Part shown: piece by piece, positions 32 through 64,000 of the stretch | Layout of the letters: each line of letters opens with the position of its first letter | Position numbering within the stretch: the first letter of the stretch is position 1 | NCBI GenBank assembly: GCA_965232875.1 | Contig: OZ247431.1 | Coordinates: 1,720,376-1,784,375 of the forward strand | Direction of reading: 5' to 3' | Source: Dehalococcoidia bacterium | Lineage (GTDB): Bacteria > Chloroflexota > Dehalococcoidia > Bin125 | Length of the DNA stretch: 64,000 nt | Made by a program: the position numbers and the translations under genes | The notes under the pieces: generated by a model | The model's input: the letters and a program-made list of their open reading frames with translations, nothing else | The model's database searches: none | Told to the model about the DNA's origin: nothing

Positions 32-565
32 ATGTCGGTGCGCCGCACCGGCGGACTGCTGATCGCTTATGGCGGCGTCATCGTGGTCTTTGTTGGAGGA
101 TTCAGCGCGCCAGGCGCCAGCGTCTGGGGCGACCTGATGACCGTGACGTCAGCGATGCTGCTCGGCACCCGACAGATCTATCTCTCCCACTTCTCGCAGA
201 GCATCCATCCGGCACGGCTGTTGATGACGCAGTCCGTAGCCGCCATCATCCTCTTCGGCCTCGGCGGAGTCTTCCTCGAATCTGGACCGCTGGTCTGGAC
301 GCCCGATTTCCTCGTCGCCCTGTGTTACCAGGGCATCGTGATCGGCGGCTTTGGGTTCATCGGCAACACCTGGCTGATCAAGCGCTACTTTCCGTCACAG
401 GTCTCAGCGACAATGCTCTTCGCGCCAATCTTTGGCGTCTTCTTCAGTTGGATGGTCCTGGGCGAGTCACTCGGCTTCGAAGTCCTCGTCGGAGTCGTGC
501 TCCTCGTCACCGGCAGCGCCCTCGTCCAACTGCGACGCCAGCCTGTTGCGGAAGCTCCTGAGTAA
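32..565 (+). CDS. EamA/DMT-family membrane transporter, C-terminal portion (5' end outside window)
   Basis: Hydrophobic multi-TM translation typical of EamA-domain drug/metabolite transporter. ORF runs to the window edge. Confidence 0.55.
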   Translation: MSVRRTGGLLIAYGGVIVVFVGGFSAPGASVWGDLMTVTSAMLLGTRQIYLSHFSQSIHPARLLMTQSVAAIILFGLGGVFLESGPLVWTPDFLVALCYQGIVIGGFGFIGNTWLIKRYFPSQVSATMLFAPIFGVFFSWMVLGESLGFEVLVGVVLLVTGSALVQLRRQPVAEAPE

Positions 566-730
566 CGGGACTCAATGCTATTCACAATGCTGTCGAGATT
601 CAGCACAAAGTCCTCGTCATACCCCCGCTTGTCGCGGGTATCTCGCGTTGACCCTCATGAGGCCGATACAACTGAGACCAGGTGTGGAGACGGCTGTCGT
701 GACGCACCCAACGACTAACCAGAGTGCGGC

Positions 731-763
731 GAGATTCCCGCGTCAAGCGCGGGAATGACGGAA
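731..763. repeat. Conserved hairpin element GAGATTCCCGCG-TCAA-GCGCGGGAATGACGGAA
   Basis: Perfect 9-bp stem. Family members at 59067-59100, 62356-62390 and in every unit of the 39291-39916 array. Confidence 0.75.
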
Positions 764-798
764 AAGGTGTTGGACCTCTAGCGACGATGCAAGTAGCC

Positions 799-1650
799 CT
801 AATCCCAGTCGTCCAGACCCAGGAGCTTTCGGCCCAACGGCGTCAACTCCGCAGGCGGCGAGTCCGCTTCTTTGCCCCGCGAATCGCCGGGAAATGCTCG
901 CGGATTCTGGAAGGCAGGATGCGACCGCTCGCGCCACGAGGCGATCCTCGCCTCTCGCAGTTCTTCATCGGCGGGATCAGCGGGAAACAGACGCACATAT
1001 TGCGCCAGGCGCGGCTTGTCCGAATAGTTGCGGCTGTTGCCATGGGGCAGCGCCGAATGCCAGATGATGAAATCGCCGGCGTTGGCCTCAACCTCGATCG
1101 GCGGTCCGATCCGTTCCGAGAAGCGCTCGTGCAATTGTTGATGCCGCAGATCTTCGTTCGAGATGCCGGCCGATACCTCCGCCGCTCGCCGATGAACACC
1201 AGGAACGCACTGGAATCCGCCTTCGCCCTGCCTTGTGTCGACCAGGTACAACACGCCCTGGACCTGGAAAGGCGTCGGCGACTGACGCACATCCATGTCC
1301 CAATGCACCATGCCATGGTGGTCGTACTGGGGATGCTCCGGATTTGGCGGAGGCTTCAGGTTGGCTCGATCGATGAACACCCAGAGGTCGTCCTGACCAA
1401 ACAGCTCCCGAAACAGCTCATACATCTGAGGGCTCTGGCGCACATCCCATAGCGCCTGGTGGTGATACATCTCCACCATGCCATTGACCCGATGCGGCTC
1501 CCGATACCAGTCCGATGAATCGTTTCGATCGAACTCGAGAAACTCCCAGATCGCGTCGACCACGGCGTCGACCTGATCGCGAGGTATCAGGTCGCGGACG
1601 ACGAGGTAGCCGTGCTGGTCAAAGAAGTCGCGGTCGAACTGGCTGAGCAT
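799..1650 (-). CDS. Phytanoyl-CoA dioxygenase (PhyH) family Fe(II)/2OG oxygenase
   Basis: N-terminus MLSQFDRDFFDQHGYLVVRDLI... and overall length fit the PhyH family. Confidence 0.7.
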   Translation of the reverse strand: MLSQFDRDFFDQHGYLVVRDLIPRDQVDAVVDAIWEFLEFDRNDSSDWYREPHRVNGMVEMYHHQALWDVRQSPQMYELFRELFGQDDLWVFIDRANLKPPPNPEHPQYDHHGMVHWDMDVRQSPTPFQVQGVLYLVDTRQGEGGFQCVPGVHRRAAEVSAGISNEDLRHQQLHERFSERIGPPIEVEANAGDFIIWHSALPHGNSRNYSDKPRLAQYVRLFPADPADEELREARIASWRERSHPAFQNPRAFPGDSRGKEADSPPAELTPLGRKLLGLDDWD

Positions 1651-2272: not shown

Positions 2273-4858
2273 TTAGTCGTTTGTGGATGCATCAGTTCGC
2301 ATGAACCGGGGCAAGAGCTCATCGGGATATGCGATGCCGACCAAACCCTTCGCTTCCAGCTCAGCGAGTTCGTCTTCCGAGTAACCAAGCAGATCGCAGT
2401 AGATCTCCCGGTTGTGCTCGCCGAGCTTTGCCGGCGGCGTACGCAGTTGATTAGGAGTCCGGCTCATGGTGAACGTCAGCCCCGGATAACGATGCGTGCC
2501 GACGCCTTCGATGGTCATCTGCTCGAAGAAGCCGACTTCGCGTAGATGCCGATCCGATAGCGCGTCGAACGGATCGTTCAGTGGCGCCGCGCAGATACCT
2601 GCGGCTTGCAGCTTGTGGAACAGGTCTTCCTTGTTCCAGACCCTGGTCTCCTGGGCGATCAATTCGTCCAGCGCATCCGAGTTGGCCAGGCGTCCCTCAG
2701 CGTTCGTGAAGCGAGTATCGAGCGGTGCATGAGCCAGATCAGACTGCACCGAAGCCTCGCCGAGACCGGCGGCCAGCGAATTGCAGAGTGTCACGAACTC
2801 GGTGTCGGAACCGATGTCGATGGCGATCCACTGATCTTCGCCGCGGCAGGGATAGACGCCGTAGGGAGCGCGAATGTGATGACTGTTGCCCTGTGACGGC
2901 GGATTGACGCCGTTCATCGAGTGCTGGAACAGATACTCCGCCAGCGTAGGTATGAAGCCCTCGTTCAGCGGCATTTCGATCTGTTGTCCGACGCCGGTCT
3001 GCTCGCGGTGTCGCAGCGCCATCAGCACGGCGACGGCGCCCTGCACACCCGAGAGGCCGTCGCTGGCCAGGGTTTCGCCAATTCCTTCTGGACCGCGGTC
3101 GGGATATCCGCGCAAGTGCGTATGGCCGACCATGGCCTCGACATGCAGCCCGAACGCGCGGTAGGTGGCATATGGACCCTCTAGCCCAAATGCCGGCATG
3201 CGCAGCATGATCAGCCTGGGGTTCACCTGCCTCACCTCTTCCCAGGTGATGCCTGCCTTGTCAATCGTGGTAGGTACGTTGTTTTCGACCAGCACATCGC
3301 ATTGTTCAATGAGTTTGAAGAATGCGTCGCGACCCTCAGGCGACATGATGTCGCAAGTCATCGATCGCTTGTTCCGAGCGTGAGAGTTGAATGAAGCAAA
3401 CCGGTTCCAGGGGTCATCGCCTGGTTCGGCATCGGGATATTGAGGCTGAACGCCGATCTCCGCGCCGCGCAGCATCGTCTCACGCGACTGGACGTTCTCG
3501 GCGCCTCGTGTGTATGGCTGAATCCGATTCACCGGTTCGACGTTGATCACGTCCGCGCCCCACTCGGCCAGAAGCTGCGCCACGTGCGGACCTGCCCAAA
3601 CCACGGTGATCGCCGCCACCCGAATCCCTTCGAGTGGCAAGTGCAAGGCGCTCAGCGGGCCCTCCGGCAGCGAATGGCGCGCGTCCTCGAGCGGGTCCGG
3701 CGGGGTCAGGTCGAGGACAACCCGCGAGTGCTCCCCGAGTCGCGGCGAACGCTTTGGCCGCGGCGGGTGAGATTCACTCATCCGGAACGGGAACCCGGGA
3801 TAGGGCAGCTCCGACCCATGCCAATGGGTAATGCGATGCCACCAATCTCGGGACTCGAGCTGTGGATCCTCAAGCACATCCGGCACCGTCATCACGGCTC
3901 CCGCCAACAGCCCGGCGGCCTGCGCCGAGGCCACTGCCTCAATCTTGCCGACATCGGCGAGGTGCGCCTCCACCGCTTCGTCAACCTTGGCGCCGAACCC
4001 CGATCCCGGGCGCGGGCCAGCCAGGAAGTCCTCGTCCTCGAGCAAGTCCTCACGCCCGATCCAGCGCAACAGCCTGGGCATCCGGTTGCCTGAGCCAACG
4101 ATGTTGACGAAGCCGTCGGCGCATGGGTACATGCCAAAGCCGACGAGGCGCCGGGTCGGTAGCGCGCGACCGGGGGCCACTCCGCTGTACTCGGCTGCCA
4201 CCAGTTGAATGGTTCGACGATCGCGGCAGCCGGCCTGGCAGCGATAAATCGAAATGTCGATCCAGTCACCGGCCAACTCGTCATTGGCGGCACGCTTGAG
4301 CGCAAGCAAGATGGCAAAGGCGGCCGTTGCGCCGGCGTGGTAGCCGGCATAGTGGCCAGCGACTTTGATCGGCTCTCGATCAGCGGCGCCGGTCGCGTGC
4401 AACGGACCGCCGATCGCCTGCATCGTGATCTCCGAGCCACGGTAGTCGCGATACGGCCCCGCTTGGCCGTACGGTGTGATCGAACAAAAGATCAGCTTGT
4501 GGTTGATCGCATGCAGCGTTTCCCAGCCCCATCCGGCGGCCTCCGCCTCGCCCGGCGGCAATGCTTCGATCACGACATCGACCAGTTGCGCCAGGCGCCG
4601 CACCGTGGCGCCGCCATCGTCGGTGTGCGGATCGAGCACGATTGACTGCTTGTTGGTGTTGAGATGCAAAAAGAGGCCGGAGGCCTCGGGGTCGGGCCGG
4701 CTGTCAGGAAACGGACCAAAGCGGCGCGAGGGATCGCCACCGCGAGGCTCCGCCTTGATCACTCTCGCCCCATAGTCGGCGAGCAGTTTCGTCGCGTACG
4801 GACCGGCAACGCCGCTGGTCAAGTCCAGTACGGTGATTCCCTCCAACGGACCGGCCAT
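2273..4858 (-). CDS. Fused tandem CoA-transferase family III (CaiB/BaiF-like) protein, two complete domains
   Basis: N-terminal half GITVLDLTSGVAGPYATKLLADYGARVIKAEP and second half GIRVAAITVVWAGPHVAQLLAEWGADVINVEP both match the family III CoA-transferase N-terminal signature. Total length 861 aa. Confidence 0.75.
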   Translation of the reverse strand: MAGPLEGITVLDLTSGVAGPYATKLLADYGARVIKAEPRGGDPSRRFGPFPDSRPDPEASGLFLHLNTNKQSIVLDPHTDDGGATVRRLAQLVDVVIEALPPGEAEAAGWGWETLHAINHKLIFCSITPYGQAGPYRDYRGSEITMQAIGGPLHATGAADREPIKVAGHYAGYHAGATAAFAILLALKRAANDELAGDWIDISIYRCQAGCRDRRTIQLVAAEYSGVAPGRALPTRRLVGFGMYPCADGFVNIVGSGNRMPRLLRWIGREDLLEDEDFLAGPRPGSGFGAKVDEAVEAHLADVGKIEAVASAQAAGLLAGAVMTVPDVLEDPQLESRDWWHRITHWHGSELPYPGFPFRMSESHPPRPKRSPRLGEHSRVVLDLTPPDPLEDARHSLPEGPLSALHLPLEGIRVAAITVVWAGPHVAQLLAEWGADVINVEPVNRIQPYTRGAENVQSRETMLRGAEIGVQPQYPDAEPGDDPWNRFASFNSHARNKRSMTCDIMSPEGRDAFFKLIEQCDVLVENNVPTTIDKAGITWEEVRQVNPRLIMLRMPAFGLEGPYATYRAFGLHVEAMVGHTHLRGYPDRGPEGIGETLASDGLSGVQGAVAVLMALRHREQTGVGQQIEMPLNEGFIPTLAEYLFQHSMNGVNPPSQGNSHHIRAPYGVYPCRGEDQWIAIDIGSDTEFVTLCNSLAAGLGEASVQSDLAHAPLDTRFTNAEGRLANSDALDELIAQETRVWNKEDLFHKLQAAGICAAPLNDPFDALSDRHLREVGFFEQMTIEGVGTHRYPGLTFTMSRTPNQLRTPPAKLGEHNREIYCDLLGYSEDELAELEAKGLVGIAYPDELLPRFMRTDASTND

Positions 4859-5329: not shown

Positions 5330-5686
5330 TTGTCCCTCGGCTTCACTTGGCCTTATGACTTGTGGGGCATAACCATGCAACAAATCGCTTCGATGATACA
5401 TCGAATCGGACCACGCGATGACTACCAATACGGCGCCGGGGTCATCGCTCTGGGATTGGCCGCGTTCGTCTTGTCAGGACTGAATCCCTACCCTACGCTC
5501 GGATACTGGCAGACGCAGTTTCAACTCGTTTGTTTCGCAGGTTTGTTGTTGTTGACCGGAGCATACGCTCTGCCGGCCACGAGTCGCAGATGGTACGGGG
5601 TGAAGCTTCTCATCGCTTCTGCCGCTATCCACTGGATGTTTATCCTCCCTATTGCCAGATACTGGGGACGCTGGGACAACTTCTAA
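5330..5686 (+). CDS. Small integral membrane protein (hypothetical)
   Basis: 3-4 predicted TM segments. Paralogous to the next ORF (shared LTG..LP.SR...GWY...LLIA.A.IH pattern). Confidence 0.4.
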   Translation: MSLGFTWPYDLWGITMQQIASMIHRIGPRDDYQYGAGVIALGLAAFVLSGLNPYPTLGYWQTQFQLVCFAGLLLLTGAYALPATSRRWYGVKLLIASAAIHWMFILPIARYWGRWDNF

Positions 5687-5712
5687 GCAGCACTTGCGGA
5701 ACGGTGAGAACA

Positions 5713-6030
5713 ATGTCAGTACGGGAGTGGATCAGTAGCAACGTCAGGTTCCTGATTGGCGCAGCCGTAACAGGTGTTGGCGTCATCGCGTGGTACAACA
5801 CCATGTGGTTCATGATTTCGCCCGGGTTGGATTTCACCGGGTTGCGGTTTCAGGCTTTGCTCTGGTTGTGGCCGATGTGCATCATCGTCGTCCTGACGGG
5901 ACTGCTGACACTACCTCCCAGCCGCGATCGTACAGCCGGTTGGTACTGTTTCGTGCTGTTAGCAATCGCCACCGCGATTCACGCACTCGTGCAGGGCTAT
6001 CAGTTCGACGAGCGGTTGCTCTGGTGGTGA
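5713..6030 (+). CDS. Small integral membrane protein (hypothetical), paralog of the upstream ORF
   Basis: Internal Met of track ORF 5530..6030. Hydrophobic, similar to 5330..5686. Confidence 0.4.
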   Translation: MSVREWISSNVRFLIGAAVTGVGVIAWYNTMWFMISPGLDFTGLRFQALLWLWPMCIIVVLTGLLTLPPSRDRTAGWYCFVLLAIATAIHALVQGYQFDERLLWW

Positions 6031-6051
6031 CATCAGCACCGCTCTGGCGCC

Positions 6052-7212
6052 TCAACGGCTGCGTCGCGCTTCCATACCCAGCAGAGGACGCGCGCCGGCG
6101 TCGAAGTTCCATTCCAGTGCTGCCCCGTGCTGGCGAGCCGTCTGCAAGTCTCGCCAACGTCGCTCTAGCGTCCATGTTCGACGAGCCGCCTTCGTTCCGC
6201 CGGCTCGGAAGAGCTTCTCGATCGCATCCACACATGCATGAACCGCATGCACGTTGGCCAGCCGGCATCTCCCGAGTAGCTTGGCGTCGGGAGCGCCTTG
6301 TTCGATAGACGGCCAGGCGGTCGTCCAGGCTTCCTGTACGAGGGCGCGGGCAGCCGAGACCTCGGCCTGGGCCCGTGCGAACGCGAGACGAAACGGCTCA
6401 CGCTCTCGCAATGCGGCTGTGTCTCCGGTTGTCGACTCTGACGCGACCGCGGCCAGATCGTCCAGCGCCCCTTGCGCGGCGCCCACAGCGTGTCCGGCAT
6501 TGGCAATCCAGGCCACCAGTGAACGGTCGGGCACGTTCCATTGCGGACCCTCGGCATATGGCGGATCCAACGCCGCCCAGGTATGCGCGTTCTGCACAAA
6601 CGCCCTGTCAACTTCCCAATCGTGGCTGCCCGTGCCCCTCAGACCCATCGCGTCCCATGTCTCAATGATCGTTCCCGCTCGTTGCGGCAGCAATGCAAAC
6701 CGCACGCAATCTTCAAAGTCCACGAACGTGGCCACGATGTAGGTCGCGTGCTCAACGCCGCTGACAAAGTTCAAGCGACCGCTCAATCGGTAGCCCGACA
6801 CATCCGGTTCCGCTGTCGTCATCACACGTGATGAGCCGACAATCCGGCAACTTGGACCGCCCGGCTCCTCGCCCCCGATCATCTGGCTCAACACTGGGTT
6901 CGGCAGATACGCCGCCAATAGGGACACCTCGGTGGCGATCATTACCACCCAGGCCGTCGAGGCGTCAGCATGCGCTAGCGCTTCGATGACGTGGAAGACG
7001 ACCAAGGGGTGCGCTTGCTCGCCGTAGCTGCGCGCCGGCAGATTCAACCGATACAGCCCGCGAGCCGTGATCGCTTCGATGATCTCACGTGGGACCGAAC
7101 CAGTTTCCTCAATCACATCCGCGCATTCGCGAATCATCGGCTGCAACTCGCGAGCCGCCGCAACGAGCGGATGATCCTCATACTGGGCGAACACGCTGGA
7201 GGATTGAGCCAT
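6052..7212 (-). CDS. Acyl-CoA dehydrogenase-like flavoprotein (type-2 ACAD / flavin monooxygenase-like)
   Basis: 386 aa with ACAD-fold-like sequence (…IIEAITARGLYRLNLP…). Confidence 0.65.
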   Translation of the reverse strand: MAQSSSVFAQYEDHPLVAAARELQPMIRECADVIEETGSVPREIIEAITARGLYRLNLPARSYGEQAHPLVVFHVIEALAHADASTAWVVMIATEVSLLAAYLPNPVLSQMIGGEEPGGPSCRIVGSSRVMTTAEPDVSGYRLSGRLNFVSGVEHATYIVATFVDFEDCVRFALLPQRAGTIIETWDAMGLRGTGSHDWEVDRAFVQNAHTWAALDPPYAEGPQWNVPDRSLVAWIANAGHAVGAAQGALDDLAAVASESTTGDTAALREREPFRLAFARAQAEVSAARALVQEAWTTAWPSIEQGAPDAKLLGRCRLANVHAVHACVDAIEKLFRAGGTKAARRTWTLERRWRDLQTARQHGAALEWNFDAGARPLLGMEARRSR

Positions 7213-8584: not shown

Positions 8585-8640
8585 TCCCCGCTCCCCCTTG
8601 CAGGGGGAGCTGCCGAAGGCTGAGGGGGTCCCACTCCCCA
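8585..8640. repeat. G-rich palindromic intergenic repeat (CCCCCTTGCAGGGGGAGCTGCCGAAGGCTGAGGGGG)
   Basis: Related copies at about 39960-40060 and 55690-55900, sharing the CTTCGGCAGC core and CCCCTTGCAGGGGG palindromes. Confidence 0.7.
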
Positions 8641-8749
8641 TCGACAGACCTGTGTAACCTCCGTCCGCTGTTCCACACCAAGTGAACAGACGCCAGCAGT
8701 ATCCCGCTCGGGGACGTTGGTCGAAGGCTCATTGGGACCTCCAAAGGGA

Positions 8750-8785
8750 CCCTCACCCTAACCCTCTCCCAGAGGGAGAGGGGAC
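8750..8785. repeat. REP-like palindromic element CCCTCACCCTAACCCTCTCCCAGAGGGAGAGGGGAC
   Basis: Identical 36-mer recurs at 40665-40700. Contains the palindrome CCCTCTCCC-AGA-GGGAGAGGG. Translates to 'PLPEGEG' in one frame. Confidence 0.8.
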
Positions 8786-38713: not shown

Positions 38714-38899
38714 CGTGCTGTCTCTCCGCTCTGGATGCAATGTGCAGTTTCGCACCAAACGGCATTGGGCGGTAGTGGGAGTGAGCGGGTCCCCGCGTGA
38801 AGCGGGGACTGGGGGACTGCGGCGGGCACGGCGGGACTAGGGGTTGGGGGATCCCGTGTGAGAAAAAAACGCGGCGCGAAAAAAAGACGGGTTGGGGGA

Positions 38900-39217
38900 T
38901 TACCAGGGGTCGTCGTCCTCTTCGAGCGGGTCTTCCTCCTGGAGCAGCAGCAGGCTGGGCGCAGGTTCCCGCGTGAAGCGGGAAGTGGAAGCGCCTTCGG
39001 GGGTGTCGTAGAGGTCGCGGAGCTTGTGGCGGGCGACGTCGTAGGGGTCGGTGGTCAGGTAGAGTTGGTGGTTGAGACGGGCTTGGGGGTTGGTGGGGGC
39101 GAAGAGTTCGCGGACGATGGTGTCGAGGGCTTTGACGCGGAGGTAGCCGGGGTTGTGTTCGGCGGAGCGTCGCCAGAGGCGGTCGATCCTGGCTCGGAGG
39201 TGGTAGGGGTTGGGCAT
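38900..39217 (-). CDS. Hypothetical 105-aa protein upstream of sdhA
   Basis: Intact ORF, AT-richer, acidic C-terminal tail. No recognisable family. Confidence 0.3.
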   Translation of the reverse strand: MPNPYHLRARIDRLWRRSAEHNPGYLRVKALDTIVRELFAPTNPQARLNHQLYLTTDPYDVARHKLRDLYDTPEGASTSRFTREPAPSLLLLQEEDPLEEDDDPW

Positions 39218-39290
39218 GGGGTGTCCTTTGGGGTTTGGGTAGTATGTATGTTCTGAATATATCAGAGTTGGGTGTGACCAGGTTGTCGGG

Positions 39291-39916
39291 GGGAGATCGC
39301 GTGGCGTCGGCTGGGGGACGGCTGGCGAGTGTCCGTTGATGGGCTTGGATGGTTCGTGATTCCTGCCTACGCAGGAATGACGGAGGGGAGATCGCGTGGC
39401 GGCGGCTGGGGAACGGCTGGCGAGCGTCGCCGTTGATGGGCTTGGATGGTTCGTGATTCCTGCCTACGCAGGAATGACGGAGGGAGGCCAGGAATGACGG
39501 AGGGGAGATCGCGTGGCGGCGGCTGGGGGACGGCTGGCGAGCGTCGCCGTTGATGGGCTTGGATGGTTCGTGATTCCTGCCTACGCAGGAATGACGGAGG
39601 GAGGCCGGGAATGACGGAAGGGAGATCGCGTGGCGGCGGCTGGGGGACGGCTGGCGAGCGTCGCCGTTGATGGGTTTGGATGGTTCGTGATTCCTGCCTA
39701 CGCAGGAATGACGGAGGGAGGGCAGGAGTGACGGGAGGGGAGGGCGGGAATGACGGAGGGGAGATCGCGTGGCGGCGGCTGGGGGACGGCTGGCGAGCGT
39801 CGCCGTTGATGGGCTTGGGTGGTTCGTGATTCCTGCCTATGCAAGGAATGACGGAGGGAGGGCAGGAATGACGGAGGGAGGGCGGGAATGACGGAGGGAG
39901 GGCAGGGAGCGGCGGG
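39291..39916. repeat. Nested tandem repeat array: 5 copies of an about 95-97-bp unit, followed by 0,1,1,2,3 copies of a 20-bp sub-repeat GGAGGGCAGGAATGACGGAG
   Basis: Unit GGGAGATCGCGTGGCGGCGGCTGGGGGACGGCTGGCGAGCGTCGCCGTTGATGGGCTTGGATGGTTCGTGATTCCTGCCTACGCAGGAATGACGGAG. Each unit ends in the hairpin ATTCCTGC-CTAC-GCAGGAAT. No ORF of 60 aa or more in any frame. Confidence 0.85.
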
Positions 39917-40068
39917 CGCTGGGTCTGAGGGTAGCTGGGTGGGGTTGTGGTTGGATGTGCGGGGTGGTGCAGCCGGGGAGCCCCTCCTTCAGCCCCCGTT
40001 CAAGCCGGGGGCAGGCTCTTCGGCAGCTTCCCCCGCAAGGGGAGGGGCGAGGGGATTGGAGGGGGTTG

Positions 40069-40671
40069 TTACTCCTGGCCTCGGTAGTGACGGACGATTT
40101 TGCGTCCCAGCGGACCGACCGCTTCGAGTGCCAGGTACTGGATCAAGATGACCGATTTGGCGTCAATGATCTCGCCTGCTTCGACGCGTTCAATCGCCTC
40201 GCCGAGCGGCATCCACTCGACGATCAGTTCCTCATCTTCGTCGGCCTGGAGTGGCGCTTCCACGCAGTCGCGGGCAATGAATCCATGCAGGAATTCATTG
40301 GCGAAGCCGGGGGCGACGTAGAACCCTCGAGCGAAATCAAGCCGGGCCGGATCGAGACCCACTTCCTCTCGCAGCTCGCGGCGCGCAGTCTCGGTGGGCG
40401 ACTCTCCTGGATCGACGCGGCCCGCCGGTAGTTCGAGCAAGGGCCGACCCGTGGCGTGTCGCCACTGACGCACGAATGCGATATTGCCATCCTCTCGGAG
40501 CGCGAGGATGACGACCGCATCGGGATGCTCGACGACTTCTCGCCGAGTCTTGCGACCGTCGGCCATTTCGACGTCGTCGACGCGCACTTTAATTCTGGAG
40601 CCGTCGAACACCTGCTTCGATTCGAGCACGGTCTCGGTGAGGGAGTCGAGCGGGTTGGCCATTGCCCTCAC
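40069..40671 (-). CDS. NUDIX hydrolase (ADP-ribose pyrophosphatase-like)
   Basis: Nudix box …GRVDPGESPTETARRELREEVGL…. Confidence 0.8.
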   Translation of the reverse strand: MRAMANPLDSLTETVLESKQVFDGSRIKVRVDDVEMADGRKTRREVVEHPDAVVILALREDGNIAFVRQWRHATGRPLLELPAGRVDPGESPTETARRELREEVGLDPARLDFARGFYVAPGFANEFLHGFIARDCVEAPLQADEDEELIVEWMPLGEAIERVEAGEIIDAKSVILIQYLALEAVGPLGRKIVRHYRGQE

Positions 40672-55583: not shown

Positions 55584-55689
55584 GCATTCCCTGCGTTCCG
55601 GCGCTTCACTCCACGTGGGAACGCTGTCCCGAACAGACTGATGGTGGCGTGACGGCACCACTCCGCGTCAGGAAGGACCCCCCCCCCCT

Positions 55690-55900
55690 CAGCCTTCGGC
55701 AGCTCCTCCTTGCAAGAGACCGATGCATAACTCCCCTTCTCCCCCTTGCGGGGGAGATGCCCCCTGCCTACGCAGGGGCAGGCTCCGGCAGAGGGGGGTT
55801 CCCTGCCTCTTAGCCCTATCTGGTCGTCGCCAGCCGCCTCCCTCTGTCACTCTGTGACATCTCCCCCCGCAAGGGGGGAGAGGGGAATCGGAGGATATGC
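55690..55900. repeat. Cluster of G-rich palindromic REP-like elements
   Basis: CCCCCTTGCGGGGGAG, CTGCCTACGCAGGGGCAGG, CCCCCCGCAAGGGGGGAGAGGGG. Shares the CTCAGCCTTCGGCAGCTCC core with 8610-8630. Confidence 0.7.
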
Positions 55901-55956
55901 ATCAGTCTCTGCAAGGGGGAGCAAAGGGAACCGATTGCCAGCCTCCCTGCGACGAG

Positions 55957-57026: not shown

Positions 57027-58895
57027 GTGTATGTCGTCGGTACCGCCGGACACGTCGATCACGGCAAGAGCGCGCTGGTGCAGGCGTTGTCGGGCATCGA
57101 TCCGGACCGCTGGGCCGAGGAAAAAGCACGCGGACTGACCATTGACCTCGGCTTCGCCTGGTGCGAACTGCCCTCTGGCCGCGCGGTCAGCATCGTTGAC
57201 GTCCCCGGACACGAGCGGTTCATCAAGAACATGCTGGCCGGCGTCGGCGGGATCAACCTGGCGTTGTTGGTGATTGCCGCCGACGAAGGTGTGATGCCCC
57301 AGACTCGCGAGCACCTGGACATTCTCGACTTGCTCGACATCGATCTGGGACTCGTTGCCCTGACCAAAACCGATCTGGTCGACGAGGACTGGCTGGCGCT
57401 GGTGGAGGAGGAGATCATTGAGTTGCTCGATGACACTGCTCTGAGTGGATCGCAGATTGAGCCGGTCTCTGCGCTCACCGGCGACGGCGTGGACGACTTG
57501 CGCTCAAAGATCGATGCGATGCTTGCCGATCTGCCGCCGATCCCAAATCAAGGCCGACCGCGCATGCCGATTGATCGGTCGTTTACGATTTCCGGCTTCG
57601 GGACCGTCGTAACCGGCACCCTGCTCGACGGCGAACTCTCGGTGGGCGATGCGGTTGTGGTCGAGCCAGGTCGACGCGAGTGTCGCGTCCGAGGCTTGCA
57701 GTCACATGAAGAGTCGCTGGACACGGCGCCGCCCGGGGCTCGCACCGCGGTCAATCTGAGCGGCGTCTCGGCCGGCGAGGTTGAGCGCGGCATGGTGCTC
57801 TCGACGCCCGGCTGGCTAGAACCGACCGTTGCGATCGATGTCCGACTACGCGCTGTCGCCCGAGCCGCCAAGGCGTTGCCCCACAACGCGACGCGGACGC
57901 TGCACGTTGGCGCCGATGAGGTGCAGGCCCGCGTACGACTACTCGAAGGGGAGGCGCTAGCGCCGGGATCGTCAACGTGGGCGCAGCTTCGGCTCGAGCG
58001 ACCGATTGCCGCCGCTCGAGGTGATCACTTCGTCCTGCGCTCGGCAGATTCAACTGTCGCCGGCGGGCGGATCGTTGACACGCGACCACGTCGACATCAT
58101 CGCAACGACGCTTCGACACTTGAGGCATTGGAACGACTGCTCGATGGTTCGCCCGACGACACGCTACTGACAGTGCTGCAGCGGATGGAGCCAGCGCGCT
58201 GGGATGGGCTGGTCGCACGCAGCGAGTTGTCGCTGGAGGAGGCGATGGCCGCGATCGAGCGTCAGATCGATGATGATGCCGTGGTGGTGCTCGATGAAGG
58301 CGGACTGTCTGACTCGGCGGTACTGATTTCTGAGCAGGGGATGGGAGCGTTGCTGGCGCGAGCCGAGGGCGCAGTAACGGATTATGTCAACTCGTTTCCG
58401 CTTCGGGCGGGATTGCCCCGAGAAGATCTGCGCACGCGAGTGAAACTGCCGCAGCGCGCCTTCTCGTTTCTGCAGCAGGCACTAGTCGACTCGGGGCGGC
58501 TGATTCTGAACGACGCTTCGTTTGATCTCCCCAGTCGACAGGTGGCGCTCTCTGACGCTCAGCAGTCGCAGGTTGACGCGTTGCTGCTCCGACTCAAACA
58601 GCAAGGGACACGCCCGGAAACCGACCCCAAGCTCGACGCCGATTTGCTCGAGTACCTGGAAGCGAAGCATTTGATCATGAGGCTCAAAGGCGGTGTCAAC
58701 CTCGACCGCGCTGTGTACGACAGAATGGTCGCCGAGACCCGAGCACTACTTGAGGCGCAGGAGCGAGCCACGCTGGCCGATGTACGAGATCGCCTCGAGA
58801 CCAGCCGCAAGATCGCGCAGGCCTTCCTCGAGCACCTCGACACCAACCGGATCACTCGTCGAGTCGGCGATGCTCGAGTGCTGCGCAAGGGTTAG
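57027..58895 (+). CDS. selB: Selenocysteine-specific translation elongation factor SelB
   Basis: GTAGHVDHGKSALVQALSG G-domain. 622 aa with C-terminal winged-helix extension. Confidence 0.85.
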   Translation: MYVVGTAGHVDHGKSALVQALSGIDPDRWAEEKARGLTIDLGFAWCELPSGRAVSIVDVPGHERFIKNMLAGVGGINLALLVIAADEGVMPQTREHLDILDLLDIDLGLVALTKTDLVDEDWLALVEEEIIELLDDTALSGSQIEPVSALTGDGVDDLRSKIDAMLADLPPIPNQGRPRMPIDRSFTISGFGTVVTGTLLDGELSVGDAVVVEPGRRECRVRGLQSHEESLDTAPPGARTAVNLSGVSAGEVERGMVLSTPGWLEPTVAIDVRLRAVARAAKALPHNATRTLHVGADEVQARVRLLEGEALAPGSSTWAQLRLERPIAAARGDHFVLRSADSTVAGGRIVDTRPRRHHRNDASTLEALERLLDGSPDDTLLTVLQRMEPARWDGLVARSELSLEEAMAAIERQIDDDAVVVLDEGGLSDSAVLISEQGMGALLARAEGAVTDYVNSFPLRAGLPREDLRTRVKLPQRAFSFLQQALVDSGRLILNDASFDLPSRQVALSDAQQSQVDALLLRLKQQGTRPETDPKLDADLLEYLEAKHLIMRLKGGVNLDRAVYDRMVAETRALLEAQERATLADVRDRLETSRKIAQAFLEHLDTNRITRRVGDARVLRKG

Positions 58896-59066
58896 GTCTG
58901 GCGGAGGCTCAAGTGCATCACTCGCGTCGGAGGACAGCCGCACCCTCTCGGCCTTCGGTAGCTTCTCCCGCATGAAGACCGTTGCCACAGCCTCCATTCC
59001 GTCATTGCCGCGCTTCGTCGCGGCAATCTCGCCACGTCCAGTACGAACGTCTTTGCTCGATTCTGC

Positions 59067-59100
59067 GAGATACCCGCGACAAGCGCGGGTATGACGAGAC
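59067..59100. repeat. Hairpin element GAGATACCCGCG-ACAA-GCGCGGGTATGACGAGA
   Basis: Compensatory T->A / A->T changes in the two stem arms relative to the 731 copy keep the pairing. Confidence 0.75.
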
Positions 59101-59174
59101 TGTTCCTGCGAGTCAGGCGGTGTTTCAATCATCTCCGGTAGGGGGGAAAGAAGGACGGAAGCGAGCGAGCGTTG

Positions 59175-60377
59175 TTAGGCCTCTCGTTCGACCCGACGTA
59201 CCACTCGTCGCTCTCCGCGCATTCGCAGCAGCCTCGGCAGCGTGCCGTCTTGCCAGAGGAAGACGATCTGGCTGGCAACGGCGATAGACGAATACGTACC
59301 CGCCACGGTCCCGATGAAGAGCACGATCACGAACGGGCGGATGGTCACGCCACCGATCAGCAACAACGCCAGCAATGCCAGCACCACTGTGATTGACGTA
59401 TTCAGCGATCGGCCCAGGGATTGAGTGATGGCGGAGTTGACGACCCGGCGGAAGTCCTCGCGCGGATCGAGCAGCAGGTTCTCTCGGATTCGGTCGAAGA
59501 CGACGATGGTGTCGTTGACGCTGTATCCGATGATCGCCAGAAGCGCCGTGATGAACATGGCGTTGACTTCAAGGTCGGCGAAGCGTCCACCGATGGCGAA
59601 CACGCCGGCGACGATCGTGACATCGTGCATCAACGCGACAATCGCCGCGGCCCCGTAGAGCATCGGATTAGGCAAGCGACGGAACGCCAGCGAGATGTAG
59701 ATCAGAATCGCAACCGCAGCCACGGCGAGTGCGACGCCGGCATCGCGGGCGATCTCCACCGACAGCGTTCCCGATACCGACGAGCTTTGCAGGACGACGA
59801 TGGGTCCGACTTCGCTGCGCAGCGATTCGTTGATTCGCTGGCGCAGACCCTCGAGATCACCGTCCGACGGTTGCTCGACACGCAGGCGGAATGCGGAATC
59901 CGCGGTCGCCTGGATCCTGGCGCCTCCGAGACCAACAGTCTCGAGCGCGGACCTGACTTCGTCCTGCGAGACATTACCAGGGAACCAGAACTCGCTGCGG
60001 ACTGCGGATTCTTCTACGTCCAGATCGAGGCTGACGCTGGCCGGTAGTTCCGCGCCAATCGTGTTTCCGATCAAATCAGCGACCGCGAACCCGTCATCCA
60101 ACGACGGCGGACTGAGTGTCGCGCTGACTACGAACGAACCATCCTCGCCCTCGATGACGTTGATGGTTGCGCTCTGCGGAGCACCCTCGATAGCGTCAAC
60201 CGCTTCGGTCACGTCATCGAGGTCGGTGTCGCCGAGGAACCGCACTTCGGTTTCCAGTCCACCGGCGAAGTCGAGTCCAGCCTCGAACTGCCAGAGGGCC
60301 AGGCCGATCAGCGACGGGATGATCAGCAGCAGCGAGAGCACGGCATAGATGCGTCGGCGTCCAACGAAATCAATCAT
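59175..60377 (-). CDS. secF: Protein translocase subunit SecF
   Basis: SecD/SecF family TM pattern. 4-bp overlap with secD. Confidence 0.9.
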   Translation of the reverse strand: MIDFVGRRRIYAVLSLLLIIPSLIGLALWQFEAGLDFAGGLETEVRFLGDTDLDDVTEAVDAIEGAPQSATINVIEGEDGSFVVSATLSPPSLDDGFAVADLIGNTIGAELPASVSLDLDVEESAVRSEFWFPGNVSQDEVRSALETVGLGGARIQATADSAFRLRVEQPSDGDLEGLRQRINESLRSEVGPIVVLQSSSVSGTLSVEIARDAGVALAVAAVAILIYISLAFRRLPNPMLYGAAAIVALMHDVTIVAGVFAIGGRFADLEVNAMFITALLAIIGYSVNDTIVVFDRIRENLLLDPREDFRRVVNSAITQSLGRSLNTSITVVLALLALLLIGGVTIRPFVIVLFIGTVAGTYSSIAVASQIVFLWQDGTLPRLLRMRGERRVVRRVEREA

Positions 60378-62101
60378 GTGGTCGCCCCTCCGCCACCGCT
60401 ACCTCGCGGCCGGACGGTCATCTGTCTCACGCCGAACGGTCGCAAGCCGCGCACCCAACCGGTGCTGGCGGCGATAGTCATGAAGTTGCGAGTCACGAAA
60501 ATCACCGTGACAAAACTGAAGCCCGTGCCGACCAGCAGCGCCAGCGCGAACGACTTAATCAAGTTCTGGTTCAGCGCATCGGCGAACAGCCAGAGGATGG
60601 CAACGGTGATAATCGTGGAGACGTTTCCGTCGCGAATCGCCGGCCAGGCGCGAGCCCAGGCGGTCTCGACCGCGCCGGAGATACTTCGCCCGAGACGCAA
60701 CTCTTCCTTGAGGCGCTCGAAGATCAGCACATTGCCGTCAACGGCGAACCCAATCGACAACACCAGGCCGGCAACACCGGCGAGGGTCAGCGTGATCGGC
60801 ACGAGCTTGAACGTCGCCATGACGCCGGCTGCATAGACGATCAGCGCCAAGGCGGCCACGACTCCAGGGACGCGATAGTAGATCATCATGAAGACCACGA
60901 TGGCCAGGAAGGCAACCACACCGGCTTGCACCGTGTCGATCACCGAGTCTTCGCCCAGCGTTGCGGCGACTTCGGTGCTCTGCAGGACGCGCAGGTTGAT
61001 CGGCAAGGCGCCGGCTCGGAGCTGTCGTCGCAGAGTGAGCGCATCTTCCTCTGACAGTCCATTGATGATGCCGCTGTCGGAAATGACTGCATTGACCGAC
61101 GGGCTGGAGATCAGCCGGCCATCAACGAAGATTCCCAGCAGTCCGCGGCTCTCGAACAGCCGCCGCGTGATCTGCTCCATCAGCCGCGCGCCTTCGTCAT
61201 CGAATTCAAAGGTCAACGCCGGCGAACCGCCCTGGTCGATCGTTCTGGAAATCGAGTTGGCAATCAGGTGTCGTCCGGTGAGTTGCACCGTCTCACCTTC
61301 GGCGTTGATTCCCACAGCGGGTAGCCAGCGCAAGCCCTCACCGACGATCACATCTTCGTCCGGTGGTGCGATGAAGAATGGGTCGGCGCGACGAACAAAA
61401 CGGTCGTCATTGAGTGGGAGCGTCGTATCCCAGACATCGTCGATTGCGGCGCCAATCTGCAGCCTGTCCAGTTGTCGCGGCGGCTGTGGCTGCGCCTGAT
61501 CGATGGAGCGGAATTCCAACAACGCCGTCGAACCAACGAGGTCCGAGGCTTCATCGGCGTCGACTCCGGGAATCTGCGCATTGATCCGGTCCGTGCCGAC
61601 GACCGTGACTTCCGCCTCAGAGATACCAAAGCCGTTGACGCGCTCTTCGATCACGCGCTGTGATTCAGCCACCGCCTCCTCGAGCGAAGCATCGTCAACA
61701 TCGAGCGGCAACACGATCTCGGAGATGTTGTCAGGCAGCGGCAGATCGTAGGATTCCGCTTCGAGATCGGCGAGGCGTGGGTTCAGATCGAGGAGCACAT
61801 CCAGCTCGACGCCCTCGCGCTCAAGAAACTGGTTGAGTGACTCTCCGCGTCGAACGGGCGCGGCCTCGCCGGCGACTTCCAGCGTGATCGAAACGCCGCC
61901 GGCCAGGTCGAGACCGAGCCGGAATTCGTCGCGTGTCCAGTCGCCGACGCTGACGCCGCCGCCCTCGGGCCAGGGGATGAAGCTGGGCAAATAGCGATCT
62001 GGATTGCCCGGCCAGGATGCCGCAACGGCGAAGGCAGTCAGGATGATGATCAGCGCGAAGACATAGACATCGCGGAATTTGAAGCGTCTGATGAAATCCA
62101 T
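60374..62101 (-). CDS. secD: Protein translocase subunit SecD
   Basis: 575 aa, large periplasmic domain plus 6-TM SecD_SecF C-terminal region. Confidence 0.9.
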   Translation of the reverse strand: MDFIRRFKFRDVYVFALIIILTAFAVAASWPGNPDRYLPSFIPWPEGGGVSVGDWTRDEFRLGLDLAGGVSITLEVAGEAAPVRRGESLNQFLEREGVELDVLLDLNPRLADLEAESYDLPLPDNISEIVLPLDVDDASLEEAVAESQRVIEERVNGFGISEAEVTVVGTDRINAQIPGVDADEASDLVGSTALLEFRSIDQAQPQPPRQLDRLQIGAAIDDVWDTTLPLNDDRFVRRADPFFIAPPDEDVIVGEGLRWLPAVGINAEGETVQLTGRHLIANSISRTIDQGGSPALTFEFDDEGARLMEQITRRLFESRGLLGIFVDGRLISSPSVNAVISDSGIINGLSEEDALTLRRQLRAGALPINLRVLQSTEVAATLGEDSVIDTVQAGVVAFLAIVVFMMIYYRVPGVVAALALIVYAAGVMATFKLVPITLTLAGVAGLVLSIGFAVDGNVLIFERLKEELRLGRSISGAVETAWARAWPAIRDGNVSTIITVAILWLFADALNQNLIKSFALALLVGTGFSFVTVIFVTRNFMTIAASTGWVRGLRPFGVRQMTVRPRGSGGGGATT

Positions 62102-62355
62102 CGCCTGAACGGCCGCCCATCAACCGCTGCTGCCCGACGCCATCGGAGCGCGGAGCTTTTCTGATCGCTTAGCGAACTGTATCCCGCTTATGTCGGTTCA
62201 GCATAGGTATCAGCGTCGTTGTAATCAGCCAACCAGTGTCCGTGGAGGTCAACAAAGCGGATCGGGTGGCTCGAAGGCCACTTATGGAGAATTCCCTCAT
62301 ATCCGCGCTCCGCCGCTGACTTCTTCACGATTCCAACGTTCGTTTACCACGCTTC

Positions 62356-62390
62356 GAGATTCCCGCGTCGGAGCGCGGGAATGACGGAAG
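62356..62390. repeat. Hairpin element GAGATTCCCGCG-TCGGAG-CGCGGGAATGACGGAAG
   Basis: Same stem as the 731 copy with a different loop. 16 bp downstream of the yajC stop. Confidence 0.75.
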
Positions 62391-62405
62391 AGATTGGGGG
62401 CGGAT

Positions 62406-62732
62406 CTACCGGGACTCCTGTTCGGCAACATCCTCGGAATCGTCGTCATCCTCATTAGGCTCCGGGCGATCAATCCGCTCAGCGACCGCTCCGGTCCTCG
62501 CCCGCACAACGACGTTCTCCGAGAGCCTGAGCAATACGACCATTGGCCCATCCTCCGGCGTCTCCACGCCTTCAACCTCGGCGATCAGACCGCCTCGCGT
62601 CAGGACTGTGTCTCCGACACGCAGTTCATTGAGGTCCCGCTGACGCTTGCGCTCTTCTGAGCGGGTCGGACGGATGAAAAACAGATAGAACAACGCCACC
62701 ACGAGCAGCGTGATCAGAATGACTTCGGTCAT
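62406..62732 (-). CDS. yajC: Preprotein translocase subunit YajC
   Basis: Single TM, then …RVGDTVLTRGGLIAEV… typical of YajC. Confidence 0.85.
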   Translation of the reverse strand: MTEVILITLLVVALFYLFFIRPTRSEERKRQRDLNELRVGDTVLTRGGLIAEVEGVETPEDGPMVVLLRLSENVVVRARTGAVAERIDRPEPNEDDDDSEDVAEQESR

Positions 62733-64000
62733 TTCATCGTTCTCCTGGTGGCTCCTCGTGGCTCTGAGCGGCTTGCCGTCAGCTTGAGCTCCTCGGCGAG
62801 TCTGCGAGCTAACTCACGAGCTTCATGCACATCGGCGATCTCGCCAACTGCTGCGGCCTCGTCAATCTTTGCACGGATTTGCCCTACCATCGGTCCCGGC
62901 TCGAGACCGGTTGCCGCCATGATCGCGTTGCCGTCAAGGATTCGACCCGTCTTGTCAGGCCGCCGCGGCTGCCAGGCGATGACCCGTGCGACATGAGCGG
63001 CGTAAGCGCCCCAACGCAGTAGCAAGACGTTCGCGCCGGCGGTCGCCAGCGAGTCTGCCAGGAAGAGCCAGCACAATGGGATGGCCGCGTCACCCAGTGC
63101 CACGTGGAAGCGATGCAGCGCACGCTCGGTGGGCGGCTTGCCCGGCGAGTTGACCTGACCAGGACGCAGGTGCTGTTCAATCAGGATTTGCACCTGTTCG
63201 ATCGTCCTGGCCGGAACCCGCAACGCACGCATCCGACTCTGCGCCATTTCCGCCCCAAGCTCCGAATGACCAAAGAAGTGGGTCGACCCATCCGCATCCA
63301 CGGTCCGAGTCTGTGGTTTGCCGATGTCGTGCAGAAGCGTCGCCAAACGCAGCGGCAACTTCCACTCGTCGAGTCGATCCACGACTTCTTGAACACGGAA
63401 CAGAGGATCCAACTCGGCCCTGATCGCGGACGCTCTCTTGGCCCGCATCGAGGGTGGCCCTGTTGGGGCTGTCAATCTCGTCAGCCAACGGACCGCGTCA
63501 AGCTGATGCCAGAACACGTCACGACGATGAACAGGACGCTGACTCACGGCGCGACACAGCCCCAGTTCAGGAACGATCACGTCCAGTAAACCACTCTGCT
63601 CCAGGCGTCGCAGGGCCCAGGGCAATCGGTCGCTGACCAGAATGCGTTGCAGTTCATCCCACTGCCGCTCAGCCGCCGAGCTGGAAATCAGGGCCGAGTC
63701 GCGGCGCATGGCCGCTCGAAGCTCAAGATCGGGTCTCCAGTCGCGTTCCGCTTCCAACCGCACGGCGCGGAGCATGCGCAGGGGATCGTCGCGCAACGCA
63801 TCATCTGTCACTAGTCGCAGCCGTCGATCGGCAATGTCAGCCCGCCCACCAAACGGATCGATCAGGTGAGCGGCAATCTCACCACGCCGAAACTGGACCA
63901 GCGGGACAGCCATCGCATTGACCGTGAAGTCCCGACGGCGCAGATCGCGGTCGAGATCATCTTCGTGAAGATCCCAGACATCAATCTGTCCATCTTCCAG
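62729..64000 (-). CDS. tRNA nucleotidyltransferase/poly(A) polymerase-family protein with HD domain (CCA-adding-like). N-terminus beyond window end.
   Basis: …RDFTVNAMAV… head-domain motif continues upstream of the listed Met. HD motif …LLHDIGK…. Confidence 0.7.
   Translation of the reverse strand: MEDGQIDVWDLHEDDLDRDLRRRDFTVNAMAVPLVQFRRGEIAAHLIDPFGGRADIADRRLRLVTDDALRDDPLRMLRAVRLEAERDWRPDLELRAAMRRDSALISSSAAERQWDELQRILVSDRLPWALRRLEQSGLLDVIVPELGLCRAVSQRPVHRRDVFWHQLDAVRWLTRLTAPTGPPSMRAKRASAIRAELDPLFRVQEVVDRLDEWKLPLRLATLLHDIGKPQTRTVDADGSTHFFGHSELGAEMAQSRMRALRVPARTIEQVQILIEQHLRPGQVNSPGKPPTERALHRFHVALGDAAIPLCWLFLADSLATAGANVLLLRWGAYAAHVARVIAWQPRRPDKTGRILDGNAIMAATGLEPGPMVGQIRAKIDEAAAVGEIADVHEARELARRLAEELKLTASRSEPRGATRRTMK

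Follow-up and report, generated by a model that had tools for sequence, protein, structure and literature searches.

Tagged hairpins in a Dehalococcoidia chromosome are very probably CGTC-tagged REP elements

We analyzed a 64,000-nucleotide stretch of a Dehalococcoidia (Chloroflexota) genome (assembly GCA_965232875.1, contig OZ247431.1, positions 1,720,376 to 1,784,375; hereafter the window, numbered from its first letter) that carries a family of short hairpins, most of them behind genes. These hairpins are very probably members of the CGTC-tagged superfamily of repetitive extragenic palindromes (REPs), DNA repeats that turn over between closely related Dehalococcoidia-class genomes, rather than a conserved RNA terminator. 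CGTC-tagged REPs are a repeat type already described (Di Nocera, De Gregorio and Rocco 2013, BMC Genomics 14:522, PMC3733652), and CGTC-1 to CGTC-4 are its families. New here are the Chloroflexota host and the variant tail and loop. The original prediction for this DNA had favored a 3′-end RNA element, possibly a terminator without a U tract, with an oriented REP as its fallback; the fallback fits the published definition of a CGTC-tagged REP, and the turnover of sites described below speaks against an RNA element as the primary nature of these sequences.

Anatomy and copies of the hairpin in the window

Read on the complementary strand, the unit is (TC)CGTC-AT-TCCCGCG-loop-CGCGGGA-AT-CTC(GC). 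As DNA it is almost perfectly palindromic, CG-TC-AT-[7-nt G+C arm]-loop-[arm]-AT-CT-CG, and its orientation is set solely by a 2x2 pyrimidine mismatch between the tag (TC) and the tail (CT). The predicted fold has a 9-bp stem followed by a 2x2 internal loop (tag TC/tail CT) that is closed by CG/CG; segments of 51-61 nt have fold energies of -15 to -21 kcal/mol, with z between -1.5 and -4.0. The published definition asks for an unpaired CGTC tag (variants TGTC and CCTC) outside the main stem, stems of 8-9 bp that nearly always open with A-T and T-A pairs, a loop of 4-5 nt with length exceptions in some families, and an unpaired 3-nt tail, mostly CCA (PMC3733652). In the window, all five long copies and all five units of a tandem array show ..CGTCAT-stem on the complementary strand. 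The stem measures 9 bp in the copies outside the array (ATTCCCGCG, ATACCCGCG, ATTGCCGCG) and 8 bp within it (ATTCCTGC), and its first two columns (AT) are invariant in 36/36 distinct copies from this and related genomes. Loops are 4 nt long in the array, 5 nt in three of the other window copies and 6 nt in two. Loops of 6 nt occur in about 40% of related copies and in half of the long-type copies, against the published range of 4-5 nt. The tail is CTC outside the array and CAC within it, where the published consensus is CCA; some related copies do carry CCA tails, seen as TGGAT on the opposite strand (for example L009:5510 and L017:7113; L numbers denote related loci).

In most cases two units of different stem type are repeated together as a head-to-head pair; its tags lie outside, its spacer measures ~36 or ~87 bp, and the tag-to-tag length is about 105-160 bp. 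This agrees with the published pairs, which are mostly head-to-head (tail-to-tail is rare, tandem negligible), frequently combine two stem types and have 20-100-bp, often conserved spacers (PMC3733652). The window pairs likewise join different stem types, and their 36- and 87-bp spacers recur in other Dehalococcoidia genomes. When nine pairs were aligned together with 70 bp of flank, conservation ended at the tags and the flanks were unrelated.

Three plus-strand hairpins of the form GAGAT-stem-loop-stem-ATGAC (731-759, GAGATTCCCGCGTCAAGCGCGGGAATGAC; 59067-59095, GAGATACCCGCGACAAGCGCGGGTATGAC; 62356-62385, GAGATTCCCGCGTCGGAGCGCGGGAATGAC), where 100 dinucleotide-preserving shuffles predict 0 matches, had originally been described as single copies in one orientation. 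Their positions are correct, but the minus-strand partners (611-647, 58996-59033 and ~62290-62320) had been overlooked; a scan of both strands returns full minus-strand cores at 616-644 (GAGATACCCGCGACAAGCGGGGGTATGAC) and at 59001-59030 (GAGATTGCCGCGACGAAGCGCGGCAATGAC, a fourth stem type). The end of the copy at 59067 was also misread, being ATGACGAG and not ATGACGGA. Since minus-strand copies are found at all three loci, each is an inverted pair, and the hairpin is formed on both strands.

At locus 1, the left member (611-647, minus strand; stem ATACCCGCG/CGGGGGTAT with one G-G mismatch, loop ACAAG; 51.4 bits in the covariance model described below, E 2.2e-10) directs its tag toward the EamA stop at 565. 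The right member, which is the copy of the original prediction (728-764, plus strand; stem ATTCCCGCG/CGCGGGAAT, loop TCAAG; 61.4 bits, E 8e-13; RNA fold -16.6 kcal/mol, z -3.2), directs its tag toward the PhyH stop at 799. The spacer (648-727) leaves the GAGAT ends 87 bp apart, the spacing class also seen at L035 6847/6968. At locus 2, the left member (58996-59033, minus strand; stem ATTGCCGCG/CGCGGCAAT, loop ACGAAG; 59.7 bits, E 2.1e-12) faces the SelB stop at 58895 and the right member (59064-59100, plus strand; stem ATACCCGCG/CGCGGGTAT, loop ACAAG; 56.3 bits, E 1.4e-11) faces the SecF stop at 59175. Their partly conserved spacer (59034-59063; 36 bp between GAGAT ends) holds a motif, ..GAACGTnTnTGCTC.., common to pairs of other Dehalococcoidia genomes. 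Locus 3 is a decayed head-to-head pair: the intact unit (62353-62390, plus strand; stem ATTCCCGCG/CGCGGGAAT, loop TCGGAG; 54 bits, E 5e-11) has its tag 19 nt off the YajC stop (62406), and its partner is an internally deleted remnant at ~62290-62320, reading ..GGCGGAGCGCGGATATGAGGGAA on the minus strand, whose ortholog in L127 and L126 is an intact second REP.

The tandem array (39290-39900, plus strand) comprises five units of ~97-139 bp, each with a short-type CGTC REP, ATTCCTGC-CTAC-GCAGGAAT-GACGGA. The five hairpins (39353-39386, 39450-39483, 39567-39600, 39684-39717 and 39823-39857) had been predicted and are indeed present, with none expected by chance; however, these units start with GTGAT and do not share the GAGAT that had been ascribed to them. 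Each unit holds GTGATTCCTGCCTACGCAGGAATGACGGA, and extra half-sites GGAATGACGGAGGGAGG are present. The array lies within a ~1.29-kb insertion (38759-40068) between the Nudix gene and SdhA that is absent from both relatives examined, where the gap between these genes is 42 bp (L133, the closest relative, on the same contig as L127) or 124 bp (L134). The insertion contains a leader that is rich in C and holds another palindrome, the array itself, a promoter-like stretch rich in AT (39230-39285), an orphan minus-strand open reading frame (ORF) of 105 aa (38900-39217), for which Pfam, NCBIfam and PHROGs gave no family, and terminator-like runs rich in T; it resembles an inserted small gene cassette. 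The distance of 780 bp originally given between array and Nudix stop holds for the far end; the near end is about 170 bp away, and the array sits directly upstream of the start of the small ORF. In L051 a related array lies upstream of an unrelated radical-SAM gene, and synteny between the two arrays was discarded because they have no flanking protein in common. With that unrelated neighbor, and with the insertion missing from L133 and L134, the position of the array is not conserved. A CRISPR reading of the tandem arrays was rejected because the would-be spacers are themselves repeated, inter-hairpin segments of the window array being 95-100% identical between units.

For a census of the window we built a covariance model from the 36 distinct related copies, window copies included, and ran it on the whole window with filters off. 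It returned five strong matches, the copies outside the array (E <= 2e-10), together with all five units of the array (E 0.002-0.04), which amounts to 10 units at 4 loci in 64 kb. Because window copies helped to build the model, the informative result is that this unfiltered search of the whole window found no further copies of note. Rfam 15, searched with the whole window at the gathering threshold, gave 0 matches, and a literature search with the raw string GCGGGAATGAC gave primers and unrelated matches only. An exact-match look-up with the PhyH protein of the window returned no record.

Related copies and filled or empty sites in other genomes

A scan of 185,579 species genomes with the pattern CGAGATNNCNGCN{3,12}GCNGNNATGACG yielded at least 118 loci; as the pattern required a CTCG tail, these matches are biased toward the CTCG-tail variant. 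About a quarter of the matches listed are metagenome-assembled genomes (MAGs) of Dehalococcoidia or other Chloroflexota with the same long stems (ATACCCGCG, ATTGCCGCG, ATTCCCGCG), and these also carry a short type, ATTCC[C/T]GC. Most of the other matches listed come from Sphingomonadaceae and other Alphaproteobacteria and read CGAGAT-CCCGGC-CTTC-GCCGGG-ATGACG; Alphaproteobacteria are the classic home of CGTC REPs. Several related closed genomes have at least 3-5 separate loci each. The closed Dehalococcoidia chromosomes that bear repeat loci also encode homologues of the SecF, PhyH and Nudix of the window, which assigns the window to that class. Tandem clusters recur in related loci: 17 units in L009, 8 units with a 59-bp period in L096 and the array in L051. 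The L009 cluster (5510-6690) alternates ATACCCGCG and ATTGCCGCG stems among its 17 CGTC REPs, with gaps of 18 and 40 bp also alternating in a 111-bp period, and is strongly reminiscent of the BIME-2 (bacterial interspersed mosaic element) clusters of E. coli. At L006 4485-4513 and L134 about 4640-4680, the tag stands on both sides (CGTCAT-stem-loop-stem-ATGACG), making a symmetric, tailless hairpin.

In the survey, CGTC REPs occur in many dispersed copies per genome, mostly intergenic, behind ORFs and in co-directional and convergent spacers; the hosts it names are Proteobacteria (mainly alpha), Chlorobi, Bacteroidetes, Spirochaetes and Thermotogae, with GTAG repeats only for Chloroflexi (PMC3733652). 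The copies described here thus extend CGTC-tagged REPs to Chloroflexota. There are further pointers to other groups: hairpins of CGTC type, some of them in pairs or small clusters, are seen in L008, L020, L028 (Micropruina, Actinomycetota), L084, L106 (Binatia) and L056 (Cytophagales MAG). Actinomycetota and Binatia do not appear among the CGTC hosts in the 2013 survey, and these matches may reflect contamination of MAG bins.

To compare orthologous sites, we retrieved syntenic loci through homologues of SecF, PhyH and Nudix; protein identity to these relatives is 84-98%. Besides the window, L127 has the secF/selB pair (SecF identity 98%; divergence at third codon positions 0.11-0.13), which is absent from L121/L122 (98%, divergence 0.10), L124/L125 (96%), L126 (92%), L128 (88%) and L129 (84%). 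L121/L122 are therefore as close to the window as L127, yet they lack the pair, and in L128 and L129 the two gene ends overlap or lie 6 bp apart. The empty sites hold a small hairpin, CTTC(T)CCCC..GGGAGAAG, which is intact in L124/L125/L126; judged from the aligned sequences, the window pair appears to have been inserted inside this older hairpin. A candidate 9-bp target duplication (TACCGGAGA / TGCGGGAGA) flanking the ~185 bp of extra DNA has two mismatches, and we do not claim it. At the PhyH/EamA site, no copy is present in L130 (96%), L131 or L132 (86%).

The yajC/secD pair has a different history. It is intact in L127 and L126. In the window the first unit is intact and the second is internally deleted and mutated; in L121 the first unit bears two uncompensated changes and a deletion reaches the tail of the second; L124/L125 retain an eroded unit with a CCTC tag; L128/L129 have nothing. 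Conversely, some pairs absent from the window are found in relatives, namely in the ADH/radical-SAM spacer of L124-L126 and the leuS/purE spacer of L129. These comparisons show the secF/selB and PhyH/EamA pairs as apparent recent gains and the yajC/secD pair as an apparently old insertion in decay. The turnover of whole tag-to-tag units together with their decay in place is unlike a gene-specific functional terminator, and the filled and empty sites in close relatives mark the pair, from tag to tag, as the unit of insertion.

The window holds a second, untagged family of G+C palindromes, CTCCCCC-GCAA-GGGGGAG, at 55584-55956, 8592-8607 and 40029-40044. At 55584-55956, in the convergent ADH/radical-SAM spacer, two of its copies lie within a ~200-bp repeat, to which two stretches of L097 are ~73% identical. 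Palindromes of a similar kind occur in L132 and, at the secF/selB site, in L121; the ADH/radical-SAM spacer of L124-L126 has CGTC REP pairs instead. Separately, 40 bp at 8746-8785 are 100% identical to L046 3685-3724, from another Dehalococcoidia genome; a tRNA was considered as the cause and dismissed, as ARAGORN finds no tRNA in the window.

Stem covariation, gene context and rival explanations

The original prediction had noted that pairing is maintained as the stem changes between copies, and this is borne out. Pairing holds in each of the stems ATTCCCGCG, ATACCCGCG and ATTCCTGC, and 99.1% of cells are paired across the 36 distinct long-type copies. At two of the nine stem positions both partners differ between copies (A-U/U-A 21:15 and C-G/G-C 29:7), and neither position shows a one-sided change. 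The covariation score was reached by 0/500 shuffles, and sliding the register lowers pairing to 25-62%. The covariation is real, but it separates three stem subfamilies of a repeated DNA palindrome, so it does not argue for a structural RNA role as had been concluded. Selection on one transcribed RNA strand should favor wobble pairs on that strand; the stem mismatches are instead symmetric (wobble-compatible on the GAGAT strand in 13 cases and on the CGTC strand in 12, on neither in 15), which fits a DNA palindrome. A tempting false lead is thereby removed: compensatory stem changes behind genes here mark subfamilies of a DNA repeat.

The window genes PhyH, SecF, SecD, YajC, Nudix, EamA and SelB were assigned with Pfam. 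Locus 1 lies between the convergent genes EamA (32-565, plus strand) and PhyH (799-1650, minus strand), and locus 2 between SelB (57027-58895, plus strand) and SecF (59175-60377, minus strand), again convergent; in both, the ATGACG ends of the inverted pair point outward to the two stop codons. Locus 3 separates yajC (62406-62732, minus strand) from the co-directional secD; the Nudix gene (40069-40671, minus strand) neighbors the array. The hairpins had been said to lie always 3′ of a minus-strand gene and in the same orientation. The flanking genes PhyH, SecF, YajC and Nudix are as described, but loci 1 and 2, lying between convergent genes, are also 3′ of plus-strand genes; the impression of a uniform placement arose because the minus-strand copies were missed.

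For counts relative to genes we ran a generic finder (AT-initial stem, at most one mismatch, GACG tag) on the window and the at least 118 loci; genes in the related loci were called approximately, with a self-trained codon-usage caller. The window and the matches listed contain 10 clusters, 65 singles and three sorts of pair: 53 have their tags outside, 2 have them inside and 4 are tandem. Among the matches listed, intergenic groups are 60 co-directional, 24 convergent and 6 divergent, and 16 groups are intragenic, many of which resemble chance matches. In co-directional spacers of the matches listed, the CGTC end of single copies adjoins the upstream stop in 18 cases versus 8. The 8 exceptions are separated from the stop by 62-137 nt, a position expected for the far half of a decayed pair. 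An orientation bias relative to genes, which the original prediction had proposed to look for, is thus present; such a bias is already on record for REPs (PMC3733652). The pair structure accounts for most of it.

How the repeats spread can be proposed as follows. These REPs would be non-autonomous DNA repeats, selfish or near-neutral; an enzyme provided in trans would recognize the tagged hairpin in single-stranded DNA and insert tag-to-tag units behind genes, in intergenic DNA. Spread of this kind is probable, and any effect on RNA 3′ ends would be secondary. Copies would then decay through point mutation and deletion, persisting behind genes where insertions are tolerated. Differences between stems would stem from the spread of a few master types (ATACC, ATTCC, ATTGC) and not from site-by-site RNA selection, and the palindrome may be kept up at the DNA level by gene conversion or templated repair between arms. 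Units 19-104 nt behind stop codons place stable hairpins on mRNA 3′ ends, where, by analogy with E. coli REPs, they may incidentally block 3′ exonucleases. More tentatively, it is possible that CGTC REPs are actively mobile in these Dehalococcoidia, pairs having been gained since the ~10-13% third-codon-position split, and that the enzyme reads the mismatched CG-TC/CT-CG collar. If so, this clade, with its closed chromosomes and differing insertion sets, could reveal the missing enzyme that mobilizes CGTC REPs, and the compensated copy of window and L127 described next would reflect copy replacement or arm-to-arm templated repair.

Several observations weigh against a reading as mobile CGTC REPs. 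Between window and L127, orthologous stems show 0/54 nt of unpaired change, against 4 changes in ~40 loop and spacer nt, and one stem pair is fully compensated; this constancy hints at constraint or homogenization and could reflect selection on an RNA or DNA hairpin, although the numbers are small. The compensated pair is ATACCCGCG..CGCGGGTAT at window 59064-59100 versus ATTCCCGCG..CGCGGGAAT at L127 11216-11252, next to a spacer that is nearly identical in the two genomes despite ~12% third-codon-position divergence. This suggests copy replacement or arm-to-arm templated repair; hairpin selection could also account for it. The 18:8 bias of single copies for the tag-first orientation counts on the same side, as do the CTC(G) tail in place of CCA and 6-nt loops longer than those published. 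The genome scan demanded CGAGAT plus ATGACG, and gene calls at the loci rest on our home-made caller. Differences in presence could partly be losses instead of gains; the 0-6-bp or overlapping gene ends of distant relatives at secF/selB and PhyH/EamA argue for gain. Finally, the mobilizing enzyme and its mechanism are putative, and the sample consists of the window and the related loci.

A rival explanation, which we consider unlikely, is a selected 3′-end RNA element, a U-tract-less terminator or 3′ stabilizer that sets mRNA ends or half-life. The window hairpins are stable, lie 19-104 nt behind six stop codons and are always CGTC-first in the transcript; the preference for co-directional and convergent spacers, the tag-first singles and the constant stems of window and L127 all agree with such a role. 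REPs of E. coli stabilize upstream mRNA, a precedent for it. Yet the same sites are empty, or decayed with uncompensated changes, in relatives whose flanking proteins are 86-98% identical. The hairpin is present on both strands of the pairs, one pair occupies the divergent leuS/purE spacer of L129, and the array precedes a gene start. The hairpins are followed by CUCGCC.. or GACGGA.. and not by a U tract, and a terminator scan of 1-2000 and 58000-63000 called no element there. The mismatches without G-U strand bias and the lack of an Rfam match point the same way.

It is less probable still that these are classical REPs or REPINs (REP doublets forming hairpins) and that another part of the genome encodes the RAYT (a REP-associated tyrosine transposase of the IS200/IS605 Y1 family) mobilizing them. 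The inverted pairs with conserved spacer are REPIN-like, RAYT and IS200-type enzymes recognize an asymmetric 4-nt tag beside a hairpin, and gains between close relatives imply an active mobilizing function. The tag, however, is CGTC (with CTCG at the other end) and not GTAG, and tblastn with E. coli RayT gave nothing below E 0.4 in the window and ~0.9 Mb of repeat-bearing loci. A candidate transposase between the inverted copies of L116 proved to be an RCC1-repeat protein. The survey found no transposase gene, RAYT or other, flanked by CGTC repeats in any species (PMC3733652), and our literature search, later work included, found no mobilizer of CGTC REPs. The least likely explanation, and a very improbable one, is that the hairpins are binding sites for a host DNA-binding protein (gyrase, an IHF-like or a nucleoid protein, a role suggested for the BIMEs of E. 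coli), sites which would organize the chromosome. The alternating stems in inverted pairs and in clusters such as L009 do resemble E. coli BIME-2, but the presence of copies is not conserved between close relatives, and the uneven species distribution excludes a general chromosomal role according to the survey (PMC3733652). We retain CGTC-tagged REPs as the most probable explanation. How such repeats spread has been a question since 2013, and the closed Dehalococcoidia chromosomes are a concrete place to seek the enzyme.

Comparison with known repeat families

The hairpins share with published CGTC REPs the tag, the 8-9-bp AT-initial stem, the short loop, the 3-nt tail, head-to-head pairs of two stem types, a position behind ORFs in co-directional and convergent spacers and, in the window and the related loci, the lack of a linked transposase (PMC3733652). 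They differ in host phylum, in a CTC(G) or CAC tail instead of CCA and in the frequency of 6-nt loops, and they form long tandem arrays, whereas the survey calls clusters rare for CGTC REPs (PMC3733652). Any placement within CGTC-1 to CGTC-4 would go by stem and loop length.

The dRS3 element of Neisseria (ATTCCC-N8-GGGAAT), which the survey equates with CGTC-1 (PMC3733652), has an ATTCC..GGAAT palindrome and a GACG tag, as in the array. Palindromes like dRS3 are represented here by ATTCCTGC-CTAC-GCAGGAAT in the array and by the short type ATTCCCGC-CTGC-GCGGGAAT of related genomes. Both dRS3 and the present hairpins cluster in mosaic intergenic arrays, although their phyla differ. In Neisseria, dRS3 serves as the integration target of filamentous prophages.

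The BIMEs of E. coli, with their alternating Y and Z REPs, and the REPINs of Pseudomonas carry a GTAG tag and have a dedicated, REP-flanked RAYT gene, whereas the tag here is CGTC and a RAYT was not found in the sample searched. The architecture is shared: BIMEs and REPINs, too, are inverted pairs of two subtypes with characteristic spacers, form tandem clusters and lie behind genes, where they place stable hairpins on the 3′ ends of transcripts.

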